A stretch of 64,000 nt of DNA. It comes from a virus (taxonomy: Duplodnaviria > Caudoviricetes). The stretch's first letter is position 1. Every line of letters begins with the position of its first letter. The position numbers and the translations under genes were made by a program. This document shows, piece after piece, positions 61,222-63,991 of the stretch. The notes under the pieces are model-generated. The model did no database searches and was not told the DNA's origin. It was given only the letters and a program-made list of their open reading frames with translations. The stretch is taken from positions 7,465 to 71,464 of the IMG/VR virus record IMGVR_UViG_3300005683_000038. The stretch is one strand, 5' to 3'.

Positions 61222-61250
61222 GATTTGCATATCTGCTTGTTATGCCTCAC
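61222..61250 (+). other. Cassette left boundary: GTTRRRY core site without a full attC (attI/secondary-site-like)
   Basis: GTTATGC at 61239-45; GTTATGCCTCAC is the reverse complement of GTGAGGCATAAC at 63570-81. Confidence 0.6.
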
Positions 61251-63636
61251 TGAGCGCGGCTCCCGTAAAAGATGGCGCAGCCGTGCCCAAAGCGGCACCG
61301 CTGCGGTTGGGTTGGAAAAGATCACGCTCCGCGTCTGCCTCGCCCAATGCGAGATTCGCAGCCGCTTGTTTCCAGTAGCTCGCTTTAAGCTCCGCACCGA
61401 CAAATCTCCGGCCATTCATCAGCGCGACCCATCCTTCGCTTCCGATGCCGGCGAACGGCGACAGAACCAAGTCGCCCGGATTACTCCAAAGAAGCATCGC
61501 ACGACGGATTACATCGAGTTGCAGTGGGCATATATGCCGCTCGTCTTTGTCTTCGCGTGCGCTTCGATATTGGAGCGTGTCCGATGGGTCGATGTCCATC
61601 CACACCGGCGACGCCCACTGCTGCCACTGCTCAACCGGAAACTCTTCGTGCGTGTGCTCAATCGGCTCCGGATTCGCGCCATCCTTCCGCATCACGATGA
61701 GATAGTCCGGCAGACCTTGCCGACTCATCGCGGAGTCTTTTCGGATCTGCTTGTGTAGCAGCCCGAGTGCTTTCGTGCGCTGCATTTGCGTCACCGGGTC
61801 TTTCCAGATCGTGACGCGCGAATGATACACGAACCCTTCGGCCTCGAATGCCAGCCGGATTTGATTCGAGAAGTCTTTCAGACCGATCACGCCGTCCCGC
61901 TCTTTCATGCTTGGGATGTCGAAGCAATGGACGGCGACAAGTCGTCCCGGCATCATCACGCGGCCAAGTTCGCGGACAAGAAACCCGAAGTGCGCCGCGA
62001 ACTCGGAATCGCTCTTGGCGTTGCCCATATCGCGGTCGCTTGCGGAATACGTGTAGAGGCTCGCGAACGGCGGCGAGAACACCGAAAATCCGACGCTGGC
62101 ATCGGGCAACTTGCGAACAACCTCGACACAATCACCGAGGTGCAGTTCGTAGCGCGCTCCGCGCGCCACTTCTTCCACATAGGCGTCAGACGTTCGCCCT
62201 GTTCCTTTGATGTTGGCTTCATTGATTGAGTGCATGTGTTTGACCATTTCTTCAGCCATGCGCGCGGCATCGGATTCTTTTCGTTTGATGTTTGCCACGA
62301 CCGCGCCCTCGGCGCTCGACGTGATGATATAGACCTTGACCTCCTGCTTTTGTCCGAAGCGCCAGCATCGGCGCACGGCCTGATAGTATTGCTCCCATGA
62401 GTCGGACAGCCCGACGAAGGCGACATTACGGCAGTGCTGCCAGTTCATCCCGAATCCGGCGATGCTCGGCTTGGTCACGAGCACGCGAATCTTTCCCGCG
62501 CTGAAATCATGGAGTTTTTGCGCCTTGGCTTCCGGTTTCTCGCTGCCTTGCACTTGCACCGCATCCTCAATCTCCGCTTCCAGCTCATCGGATTCAGAGT
62601 TGAGGTTGCACCAGATTAGCCACGGCTCATCCGAGCCGTTGACCATCGCTGCGCATTTCTTCACGCGGTCACTCACGCTTTCGCGGCGAGCTGCGATGCG
62701 CTCTTGGAGTGTCTGAGCTTCCATCGCGAACAGGAACTCTCCGGCGTTTTGATGCTCGATGCTGATTTGTTCCATGGTCAGCGGGGGCAACACAAACGCG
62801 CCATCGGAGTAGCCGAGATCGGATGGCTTGCGAATCATCACCGCCCACGAGCAAACCCATTTCCAGAACTCCGCTTCCGCATGGCCTTTCAGTCGCCATT
62901 TCGCCGTTTCGCCGCCATCGTGGACGAAGAACATCGAGAGCATTTCCGTGCGACTCATCGCGCCGACAAACTCCGCGTGATTGCCAAGCTCCATGTGATC
63001 GTTCGGTGCCGGCGTCGCAGTGCAAGCCAATCGAAACGGCGTCTGCGCGAACCGCTCAATTACTTCGCGGCGCGTTTTGCCGGCGAAATGCTTGATGATG
63101 CTTGACTCATCCAGCACGACCCCCGCGAACCGGGTGCAATCAAAGTGTTCTAGCATCTCGTAATTCGTGATCGTGATTCCCTCTTTCACGTCCGCGCCAT
63201 CGCGGCAGTAGCGCACGAAGCATCCGAGTTTGGCGGCCTCATCAATCGTCTGCGTCGCTACGGCGAGCGGCGCGAGTATGAGCACGTCGCCTGGTATCTG
63301 CCGCGCCCATTCAATCTGCATGAACGTCTTGCCCATGCCACAATCCGCGAAGATACAAGCACGCCCCCGGCGAAGCGCCCACTTCACGATGTCGCGCTGA
63401 AACGGAAACAGGATTTCATGCGGTTCGCGTGGCGCGATTCCAGACGGATCGTGAATCACCGCCTTAGCCGAGAGAAAGCTTTGGTATCCGTCATCTGTAT
63501 TCGACCGCGCACCGTCTCCGCCCCGCAGACAAACCACCGGAGACCGTGCGCTATCGCCGTTGTAATTCGGTGAGGCATAACCAGCGCATGCAGTCGAACG
63601 CGCCTCCTCTGTGCTGTTCACGCTTTGAGTAGTCAT
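61240..63636 (-). CDS. SNF2-like helicase fused to a beta-class N4/N6 DNA methyltransferase
   Basis: ADCGMGKT, VLDESS, TATPAPN, RRCWRFGQ; then SVFSPPF and VLSPFAGIGS; start ATG 63636 lies inside an attC. Confidence 0.9.
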   Translation of the reverse strand: MTTQSVNSTEEARSTACAGYASPNYNGDSARSPVVCLRGGDGARSNTDDGYQSFLSAKAVIHDPSGIAPREPHEILFPFQRDIVKWALRRGRACIFADCGMGKTFMQIEWARQIPGDVLILAPLAVATQTIDEAAKLGCFVRYCRDGADVKEGITITNYEMLEHFDCTRFAGVVLDESSIIKHFAGKTRREVIERFAQTPFRLACTATPAPNDHMELGNHAEFVGAMSRTEMLSMFFVHDGGETAKWRLKGHAEAEFWKWVCSWAVMIRKPSDLGYSDGAFVLPPLTMEQISIEHQNAGEFLFAMEAQTLQERIAARRESVSDRVKKCAAMVNGSDEPWLIWCNLNSESDELEAEIEDAVQVQGSEKPEAKAQKLHDFSAGKIRVLVTKPSIAGFGMNWQHCRNVAFVGLSDSWEQYYQAVRRCWRFGQKQEVKVYIITSSAEGAVVANIKRKESDAARMAEEMVKHMHSINEANIKGTGRTSDAYVEEVARGARYELHLGDCVEVVRKLPDASVGFSVFSPPFASLYTYSASDRDMGNAKSDSEFAAHFGFLVRELGRVMMPGRLVAVHCFDIPSMKERDGVIGLKDFSNQIRLAFEAEGFVYHSRVTIWKDPVTQMQRTKALGLLHKQIRKDSAMSRQGLPDYLIVMRKDGANPEPIEHTHEEFPVEQWQQWASPVWMDIDPSDTLQYRSAREDKDERHICPLQLDVIRRAMLLWSNPGDLVLSPFAGIGSEGWVALMNGRRFVGAELKASYWKQAAANLALGEADAERDLFQPNRSGAALGTAAPSFTGAALSEA

Positions 63637-63695
63637 AGGATCAGGATTCCAATTCCCGGTTAGCCCCGGCGCGTCGCTGATGCGCATCGTTCGGC
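63575..63695 (+). mobile_element. Integron attC site (A)
   Basis: R'' GCATAAC, 5 nt, L'' CATGCAGT ... L' GCTGATG, 6 nt, R' GTTCGGC; extrahelical bases in canonical positions. Confidence 0.85.
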
Positions 63696-63931
63696 AACTT
63701 CACGATCATCCCGTTTATTCCGACGCGCTGGATCATGTCGTTTCGCTGCATCATTCGCACGGATTCTGGGAGCAGCGTCCGTATCATTCTGTTTGGACGG
63801 CAGTGTTTTAGTCCGCTCCAAAGCTGCCAGTATCCGCAAGGGTGATGGTAAAGGCTATATTCCGTTGCCGAACCATGCGCTCCAGCGAACCCGGCCTCCG
63901 CTTTGCGCTCGATGCTTGTAGTTGACTCCAT
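63641..63931 (-). CDS. Small cassette-borne hypothetical protein with both termini encoded by attC arms
   Basis: AAAGGA RBS + ATG in the attC B loop; TGA in the attC A loop. Confidence 0.65.
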   Translation of the reverse strand: MESTTSIERKAEAGFAGAHGSATEYSLYHHPCGYWQLWSGLKHCRPNRMIRTLLPESVRMMQRNDMIQRVGINGMIVKLPNDAHQRRAGANRELES

Positions 63932-63991
63932 AGTTCCTTTCACGCTCAACGCCCGCCGTCAGGCCGGGTCGCTGAGCTTGGGTCGTTAGAC
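63867..63991 (+). mobile_element. Integron attC site (B)
   Basis: R'' GCCGAAC, 5 nt, L'' GCTCCAGC ... L' GCTGAGC, 7 nt, R' GTTAGAC; CCCGGCC/GGCCGGG stem. Confidence 0.85.

Follow-up and report, generated by a model that had tools for sequence, protein, structure and literature searches.

A cluster of attC sites with reversed gene cassettes in a tailed phage, in which recombination sites probably double as translational junctions

Integrons are regarded as bacterial systems in which promoterless genes precede their attC recombination sites and rely for expression on a promoter adjoining the integrase gene. The array of attC sites described here lies in a tailed phage of ~71 kb from a bioreactor-sludge metagenome (IMG/VR record IMGVR_UViG_3300005683_000038, 71,464 bp). 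The stretch of DNA analysed (the window) comprises 64,000 nt, corresponding to contig positions 7465-71464, and its right-hand end, which is also the end of the contig, holds one extremity of the array (w61239-64000). It is highly probable, in our judgement, that this region is the attI-side end of an integron-type element in which the cassettes are reversed, the attC sites serve as translational junctions, and the integrase IntI acts in trans. The whole array comprises 12 complete attC sites and one partial site, all on the plus strand, with ~20 genes over ~9 kb and cassettes of 284-2450 bp. Since at least two attC sites are clustered with no integrase nearby, the element belongs with the CALINs (clusters of attC sites lacking an integrase) and is not a complete integron, in which IntI adjoins the array. 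Positions in the window are preceded by w and those in the contig by c; a slash marks the crossover point in a core site (G/TT, or AA/C on the other strand). The recombination sites are as follows:

w63575-63695, plus strand: attC site of cassette 1, with R'' GCATAAC, R' GTTCGGC and three bulges in the 5' arm (E = 1.4e-5 with covariance model R2, described below)
w63867-63991, plus strand: attC site of cassette 2, with R'' GCCGAAC, R' GTTAGAC and a bulged C and A (R2, E = 1.1e-16)
c552-650, c1365-1486, c1981-2074, c2225-2358, c3297-3420, c3628-3738, c4380-4472, c4777-4870, c5116-5223 and c5504-5596, plus strand: ten further attC sites
c1-24, plus strand: partial attC site, 3' arm only, with R' GTTCTGG
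w61239-61245, plus strand: first core site, GTTATGC (G/TT), the array boundary and the exact reverse complement of the R'' box GCATAAC at w63575

An original prediction, made from the window alone, had placed two attC sites at w63575-63695 and w63867-63991. Both are present and have the canonical geometry; what it could not include are the ten further sites and the partial one, which lie outside the window in c1-5596. Read on the plus strand, each of the two window sites is a long-range imperfect hairpin made up of R'' (7 nt), 5 nt, 3 bp, a bulge, 6 bp, a bulged A, a GC-rich stem, a loop, L' and R'. Folding predicted the long-range stems on either strand, with energies of -21 to -27 kcal/mol and modest z-scores (-1.3 to -2.1). 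When the whole contig was scanned with a rigid version of this geometry, matches were confined to the array and to the plus strand, the minus strand giving zero. The addition of two sites of slightly different geometry to these matches brought the number of complete sites to 12, all of which fit the arrangement 7+5+3+bulge+6+bulge+stem; in most of them the arms are paired at 13-15 of the 15 scored positions. A consensus DNA pattern for all 12 left arms was dropped, the sites being too diverse for exact-pattern scans.

A covariance model (R2) was then used to search with filters off. It was started from three equal-length sites, because a MAFFT alignment of the 12 sites misplaced the 3' arms, and was subsequently extended to seven. 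R2 found all 12 sites on the plus strand (E values from 1.6e-23 to 3e-4), each scoring far better than on the minus strand, and its best match outside the array in the 71 kb had an E value of 0.13. As a control, the model was applied to plasmid R46 (50 kb), where it retrieved exactly the four true attC sites (those behind oxa2, aadA1, oxa2 and orfD; E values from 4e-9 to 4e-5), all on the strand of the cassette genes, with no other match below E = 0.03. Since a model built from phage sites recovers the four attC sites of R46, the two sets share the attC architecture and, judged by this architecture, the phage sites are genuine attC sites. A search of the array against Rfam gave nothing relevant; to our knowledge, attC is absent from Rfam as a family. 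Two weak R2 matches located far from the array, w2823-3036 (plus strand, E = 0.13) and w19327-19429 (plus strand, E = 0.33), are probably due to chance.

The window ends inside the array, and two observations indicate how it continues. The final 21 nt of the contig are an exact copy of c639-659, and a single Logan contig from the source run spans w60500-64000 at even depth (33x) and extends 11.4 kb past the window end. On account of this overlap and of the bridging contig the record is best read as essentially circular, and the identity of the last 21 nt of the window with c639-659 places the resumption of the array at c660. With this continuation, all 12 junctions, including the one across the contig end, have an R'' box that is the exact reverse complement of the core before it; for example, GTTATGC (w61239) pairs with GCATAAC (w63575), and GTTCGGC (w63689) with GCCGAAC (w63867). 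This chain of complementarity, which the original prediction had noted for its two sites, is therefore a property of the entire array, and the expectation derived from it, that the next cassette would end in an attC site with the R'' box GTCTAAC, was borne out at c1365, across the 21-nt overlap. The chain is also kept in four related viral loci (G043, G032, L171 and L042) and in bacterial arrays. By these orientation marks, the plus strand corresponds to the attC top strand and the attI side to w61239. To the left of the first core there is no hairpin and no R2 match, as would be expected at an attI-type boundary, and no integrase gene is present to define an attI site.

The portion of the contig preceding the overlap deserves a separate description. 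Positions c1-24 are the 3' arm of a further attC site (R' GTTCTGG), which is followed by a cassette with two small minus-strand open reading frames (ORFs); this cassette ends in the attC site at c552-650, and the methylase cassette that comes next is the one reached from the contig end as well. On the circular reading, c1-638 would be an alternative branch, which suggests that two variants of the array occurred in the source population.

In a canonical cassette the ORF lies on the attC top strand and the attC site is 3' of the gene. Here, the array genes are on the bottom strand, and the polarity of the cassette is reversed: each gene is preceded by its own attC site. The genes closest to the attI-side end are:

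w61240-63636, minus strand: cassette 1, an SNF2-type helicase fused to an N6/N4 DNA methyltransferase (Pfam N6_N4_Mtase, Helicase_C and SNF2-rel_dom; codon log-odds +116)
w63641-63931, minus strand: cassette 2, p102, 96 amino acids from the ATG at 63931 (from the ORF list and the junction table)
w63986-64000, plus strand: the opening 15 nt of the N6/N4 methylase cassette that follows, within the 21-nt overlap with c639-659
c645-1436, minus strand: the second N6/N4 methylase (Pfam)

The longest-open-frame test alone was ambiguous in this GC-rich DNA, and was replaced by codon log-odds, with 17 confident genes from the same phage as the training set. The summed positive log-odds amounted to 272 on the minus strand versus 36 on the plus strand, and about half of the plus-strand score came from a real late gene outside the array. 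The four ORFs with Pfam support (the SNF2-N6/N4 methylase fusion, the second N6/N4 methylase, a DUF551 protein and a PAPS-reductase-like protein) are all on the minus strand, so that the antisense orientation of the genes, originally proposed for the two cassettes of the window, holds for all the cargo that could be identified. Plasmid R46, the CALIN of phage TJE1 and bacterial arrays, examined for comparison, served as sense controls. The identified cargo looks like typical phage accessory or anti-restriction material, as far as functions can be predicted from protein families; PHROGs had no family for ten small cassette ORFs, and Pfam none for most of the small ORFs. The SNF2 fusion probably starts at the ATG 63636-63634, in the attC loop (an alternative ATG lies at 63687), and stops at the TAA 61242-61240, inside the first core: the TTA of GTTATGC doubles as its stop codon on the minus strand. 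Its relatives align only from about residue 60 on, so the leader encoded by the attC site is not conserved.

The junctions between cassettes show how coding sequence and recombination site are combined. In seven cases among the 12 complete sites, the upstream ORF reads across R' and terminates in its neighbour's attC site, in or near the loop; an eighth entering ORF runs into the partial site at c1-24. All eight read the core AAC as an Asn codon, which puts the crossover AA/C inside an invariant codon, and all 12 sites hold a stop codon in the AAC phase, either used or unused. In the loop of the site at w63575-63695, for instance, the minus strand carries the TGA of the upstream gene (63643-63641) and, 4 nt past this stop, the ATG of the SNF2 fusion at w63636. 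The upstream gene is p102, which is predicted to start in the loop of its own attC site, crosses the junction with AAC as Asn and stops in the loop of the next attC site. For the methylase and the SNF2 fusion, in contrast, the stop codon is a TAA that is part of the core (GTC TAA C and GCA TAA C, respectively). The original prediction, according to which the upstream gene enters in the AAC phase and stops in the loop, thus describes seven of the 12 junctions, and fails for one of the tails it had given (SNDPSSATRPDGGR followed by a stop): this is an available but unused reading, the upstream methylase stopping at its own TAA in the R' box, and the AAC-phase stop of the site at w63867-63991 (TGA 63948-63946) is unused in the present arrangement.

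Translation starts show a similar distribution. A Shine-Dalgarno-like motif and a start codon were found inside the sites for the genes beginning at c1436, c2337 (GGAGGT, within the L' arm), c5184 (GGAAGGA) and w63931 (AAGGA), and at least five genes are predicted to start inside their own attC site. At c552, c4380 and c5504 the start codon of the next gene lies outside the site, so the earlier claim that the next ATG lies inside the site holds in part. A further claim, that genes leave the sites in a shared phase, did not stand as a general rule. Two exit phases were seen, one common to the SNF2 fusion, p102, the DUF551 gene and the PAPS-reductase-like gene, the other to the methylase and p116; nor is a common exit phase needed, since each gene moves together with its own attC site. 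Dual coding at the junctions is, therefore, frequent without being universal. In addition, at c5409-5801 (minus strand) a 130-amino-acid open frame enters the attC site at c5504-5596 outside the AAC phase and reads through the whole site; this frame overlaps a lipoprotein gene that starts at c5497.

The region w60500-64000 was compared with Logan contigs from three other runs, two from freshwater and one from an estuary. The SNF2 cassette was present in a freshwater run at about 94-98% identity, and the contigs carrying it start at one crossover point (w61239) and stop at the other (w63689). One contig of the estuary run matched w63781-63989 without a difference and ended there; past w63987/63989, the freshwater runs offered at least four different continuations. 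Many freshwater contigs have both arms of the site at w63867-63991 alike and other loops of 32-35 nt, several of which end in TTTCAT, that is, ATGAAA on the coding strand. Within the phage contig itself, two different attC sites (c552-650 and the one at the contig end) precede the same methylase cassette. The sole database homologue of p102 (P0002, in locus L329) diverges from it at the same kind of position: the two proteins are 78% identical from just after the attC-encoded leader up to ...KLPN, the last residue being the junction Asn, beyond which P0002 ends with AQD and a stop while p102 continues with DAHQRRAGANRELES and a stop; their N-terminal leaders differ as well. These breakpoints support shuffling at G/TT, as had been proposed, insofar as it can be read from natural variants. 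The homologue in L329 (positions 603-863) has kept both core boxes (GGTTCGG near the 5' end and GCCGAAC at the 3' end). Neither an R2 site nor any detectable attC site was found at the L329 locus, which hence provides no second array context; it could represent a fixed cassette or a pre-cassette state.

An integrase was sought both on this contig and in related viruses. The 71.5-kb record has no match to TIGR02249 or PF00589, hence no tyrosine recombinase, and a tblastn search of the contig with the IntI of a related phage (G043) revealed no IntI remnant; what had been noted for the window thus applies to the whole record. Relatives were found with an exact pattern derived from the L-box of the site at w63867, which occurred in 32 stretches of 31 IMG/VR contigs. 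All 31 viral records carry R2 sites, up to 19 per record, and five of them (G043, G032, G052, G044 and G042) encode an IntI adjoining the array in the canonical intI/attC geometry, three above the curated cut-off. The G043 IntI scores 348 bits and is 44% identical to IntI1 over its full length. In G043 and G032 the start codon of intI is within about 25-40 nt of the first core site, intI is on the same strand as the cassette genes, and the larger ORFs, one of which encodes a DUF1643 protein (E = 4e-46), are antisense to attC. Complete viral genomes with terminal repeats hold the same kind of array. In another relative, L171, the DUF2800 gene and the p62-p77b cassette are in common with the phage and the intervening cassettes differ. 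G043 (L203, 28500-39500) is itself a complete 43.5-kb phage genome with a full integron: its intI (330 amino acids), with a start codon 23 nt from the first core site, lies directly upstream of a same-strand ORF of 648 amino acids that may be a terminase, and at least 13 chained cassettes are transcribed towards intI. The types of cargo overlap in part with those of the present array: by visual motif, one of the G043 cassettes is PP-loop/PAPS-reductase-like, with no Pfam match.

The array does not travel with the SNF2-methylase gene, since R2 matches were present in just three of 80 relatives of this gene (L042, L016 and L056) and in the closest one (L005, 72% identity) there were none; the gene has more than 599 viral relatives, and none of the four records checked for IntI had one. 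All 26 terminase relatives (at most 45% identity) lacked R2 sites, and the search gave no relative that is close at the whole-genome level; probing IMG/VR with the DUF2800 nuclease alone yielded no confirmed locus.

The same L-box pattern occurs in bacterial genome contigs, in more than 120 stretches, mostly from Verrucomicrobiota (Limisphaerales, Pedosphaera, Prosthecobacter and others) and Planctomycetota. Each of the five genomes from these two phyla that were tested matches the IntI model (three above the curated cut-off) and carries R2-type sites, and in two of them (G063 and G065) IntI was seen with adjoining arrays. The host of the phage is, to judge from these sites, probably a member of the Verrucomicrobiota or Planctomycetota, and an IntI acting in trans, from the host or a distal location as the original prediction had supposed, is plausible. 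The bulged bases (G and A on the top strand) are the same in the phage sites and in the bacterial sites adjoining IntI; in contrast, the bacterial cassettes are sense in 18 of 20 cases, as determined with the same scanner and measures (longer open frame, low second-position GC), one of them encoding an ankyrin-repeat protein. The phage and its likely host thus share recombination sites and have cassettes of opposite polarity. Four contigs with verrucomicrobial-type attC sites (L225, L234, L256 and L285) belong to metagenome-assembled genomes (MAGs) labelled 'uncultured Klebsiella sp.' or 'Bifidobacterium sp.', which look like binning or naming errors.

The junctions of 86 distinct viral sites (from the related loci) were compared with those of 161 bacterial sites; the sites are related to one another and the labels of metagenomic contigs imperfect, so that the following contrasts are descriptive and are not to be read as probabilities:

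AAC-phase stop within 65 nt: 78% of viral sites, 25% of bacterial sites
In-site ATG opening at least 40 bottom-strand codons: 66% of viral sites, 31% of bacterial sites
Open frames of at least 50 codons entering the site in the AAC phase (antisense frames): 57 of 62 viral, 34 of 71 bacterial

The frame compatibility proposed for the two window sites is accordingly found across the family. The evidence leaves evenly balanced a broader idea, namely that phages of Verrucomicrobiota and Planctomycetota keep a reverse-polarity cassette pool of their own, with attC adapted as a translational junction, in which a phage or host IntI could reshuffle early and anti-restriction genes within an operon with the frames kept; this pool would be a phage-specific integron class, apart from the sense pool of the hosts in spite of the common recombination sites.

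With regard to its surroundings, phage genes on the same strand adjoin the array on either side, a DUF2800 nuclease and an RNA ligase at one border and the last part of the late operon at the other. The late genes occupy about w27.4 kb to w60.9 kb and are read rightward, while those for early functions and DNA metabolism are read leftward, starting at about w26 kb and passing through w1 into c1-7464; on the circular reading, the region would be the distal end of this leftward operon. That the record, taken for a phage in the original prediction, is a tailed phage follows from PHROGs matches of its proteins to a large terminase, a portal protein, a head protein and a primase-helicase. Next to the array boundary lies one further gene:

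w60901-61197, minus strand: a basic ORF of 98 amino acids without a family, 42 nt from the first core, at the position occupied by intI in the related phage integrons

This ORF has no Pfam match and no homologue in the compared loci; a tblastn comparison with the G043 IntI was negative as well, and the ORF does not represent a remnant of IntI. Within it, at the point of convergence of the late and early operons, w61119-61162 holds a GC-rich hairpin (CCAGCGGCGC ... GCGCTCGCTGG) followed by a T-rich run, which may be a bidirectional terminator.

How far do these data favour an array that is shuffled by IntI? An alternative that we consider unlikely, if the best placed of the competing explanations, is that the array is a real phage attC array but a frozen, unshuffled relic, its overlap with coding sequence being a passive by-product of compaction and shared ancestry. 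The absence of an integrase from the contig would fit this, as would the two junctions of 12 (c552 and c4380) that are essentially intergenic; the p102 homologue in L329, which has no detectable attC site, indicates that cassettes can become fixed, and the relatedness of the sites within the family makes the viral and bacterial site counts non-independent. A relic, however, is hard to reconcile with breakpoints and alternative neighbours falling exactly at G/TT in three other metagenomes, with two alternative cassettes ahead of the methylase cassette in the contig itself, or with the arrays of relatives differing around shared cassettes. The arms are still well paired in most sites, and the AAC phase is observed in 57 of 62 entering ORFs across unrelated phage backbones. 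Several points do weigh against the interpretation of the array as a shuffled one with translational junctions. The phase rule could reflect common descent or the original making of the cassettes instead of selection; recombination has not been observed for this phage itself; and the Logan contigs provide breakpoints and alternative neighbours, not recombination events, low-identity joints among them possibly stemming from other organisms. The start codons are predicted ones, and that of the SNF2 fusion at w63636 has a weak ribosome-site motif; at c552 and c4380 the upstream stop is at or before the site edge. Finally, CheckV gives the record a completeness of 77%, and an integrase might be encoded on a missing part, though the 21-nt overlap and the bridging contig argue for near-circularity. 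The phase rule may be maintained by selection for shuffling rather than simply inherited.

We consider it very improbable that the main role of the hairpins is in the RNA, for instance in processing, attenuation or translational coupling, with a secondary likeness to attC and with a recombinase other than IntI, or none, involved. The transcribed strand does carry the folding bottom-strand sequence, the fold energies are those given above (-21 to -27 kcal/mol), and in the site at c2225 the GGAGGT ribosome site and the ATG are in the L' arm, so that pairing could mask them; the z-scores, in contrast, are modest. IntI substrates are characterised by such bulge positions, AAC/GTT cores and an R''/R' chain, none of which has a known role in RNA, the same attC subfamily adjoins IntI in phages and bacteria, and an RNA function would not yield breakpoints at G/TT; the two roles are, in any case, not mutually exclusive. 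An assembly chimera or host contamination, in which a bacterial integron fragment had been joined to a phage contig, is hardly credible: the array does lie at both ends of a linear metagenomic contig and its attC subfamily is abundant in bacterial MAGs, yet one source-run contig covers w60500-64000 and beyond at even depth, same-strand phage genes flank the array on both sides, the cargo is of phage type (DUF551, SNF2-methylase), the polarity is opposite to that of bacterial arrays, and complete viral genomes with terminal repeats have arrays of the same kind.

The preferred reading, of an array recombined by IntI in trans, can be put as a sequence of steps. The array would be transcribed within the long early operon, against the orientation of attC. 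The 5' part of each attC site would provide an in-frame stop to any upstream ORF crossing AA/C with AAC as Asn, and its loop or stem would give a ribosome site and a start codon to the site's own gene. IntI, supplied by a chromosomal integron of the host or by a co-infecting related phage that encodes it, would recombine the folded bottom strands at G/TT, and the excision, insertion or exchange of cassettes might thereby leave reading frames intact. The array thus points to a second use of attC, in front of a gene and carrying its translation signals, in which a crossover inside an invariant codon would make genes exchangeable within a tightly packed operon. If IntI does act here, unrelated phage backbones would have a site-specific route for swapping accessory genes such as those for DNA methylases, which would explain part of the mosaicism of phages at gene boundaries. 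The findings also bear on the origin of cassettes and on the opposite polarity of phage and host pools with identical attC sites, and surveys that assume sense ORFs would mis-annotate arrays of this type.

The occurrence of CALINs and of a few integrons in phages has already been reported (Qi et al. 2023, Front Microbiol, PMC9892861); in that work IntI1 recombined five of six phage attC sites, and N6_N4 DNA methyltransferases were among the CALIN cargo. The present array shares with those CALINs the phage setting of its attC sites, the lack of a genome-borne integrase and the methyltransferase cargo (PMC9892861). It differs in size, the published ones being small (at least two sites each; three sites and four ORFs in TJE1) compared with 12-13 sites in a perfect chain, and in polarity: the TJE1 CALIN is sense, with R2 matches at the 3' ends of plus-strand genes, whereas here all genes are antisense and the sites double as stop/start junctions of fixed phase. 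The supposition that the arrangement was undescribed is therefore incorrect for phage attC clusters as such (PMC9892861) and was upheld for the reversed polarity and the AAC-phase junction, for neither of which a description was found in the full-text literature searched, the journal coverage of which is incomplete.

The class 1 integron In1 of R46 (intI1, attI1, oxa2-aadA1-oxa2-orfD) has the same attC architecture, orientation marks and G/TT cores. Its genes, however, are on the attC top strand, adjoin intI and are expressed from the promoter Pc next to attI, whereas those of the phage array are on the bottom strand, have no intI, and would be read from a promoter far upstream, in the direction of the attI-side end. 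The chromosomal integrons of Verrucomicrobiota and Planctomycetota (MAGs G062-G066) share with the phage array exact L-box stems, the G and A bulges, similar lengths and a perfect chain; they differ in being located beside IntI, in being mostly sense, and in that early AAC-phase stops and in-site starts are rarer. A functional analogy, and no more than that, exists with the promoter-early stem-loop (PeSL) mobile regulatory cassettes of T4-type phages, reportedly described around 2010 by Arbiol, Comeau, Krisch and colleagues as structured intergenic repeats that carry expression signals and were proposed to shuffle small early genes; PeSLs are said to be shuffled by homologous recombination, and to have neither the attC architecture nor a G/TT crossover or IntI. 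The phage integrons G043, G032, G052, G044 and G042 have attC sites of the same subfamily, and the polarity is reversed in both of those examined (G043 and G032); they carry intI just beyond the first core, in the place where the phage described here has its 98-amino-acid ORF.

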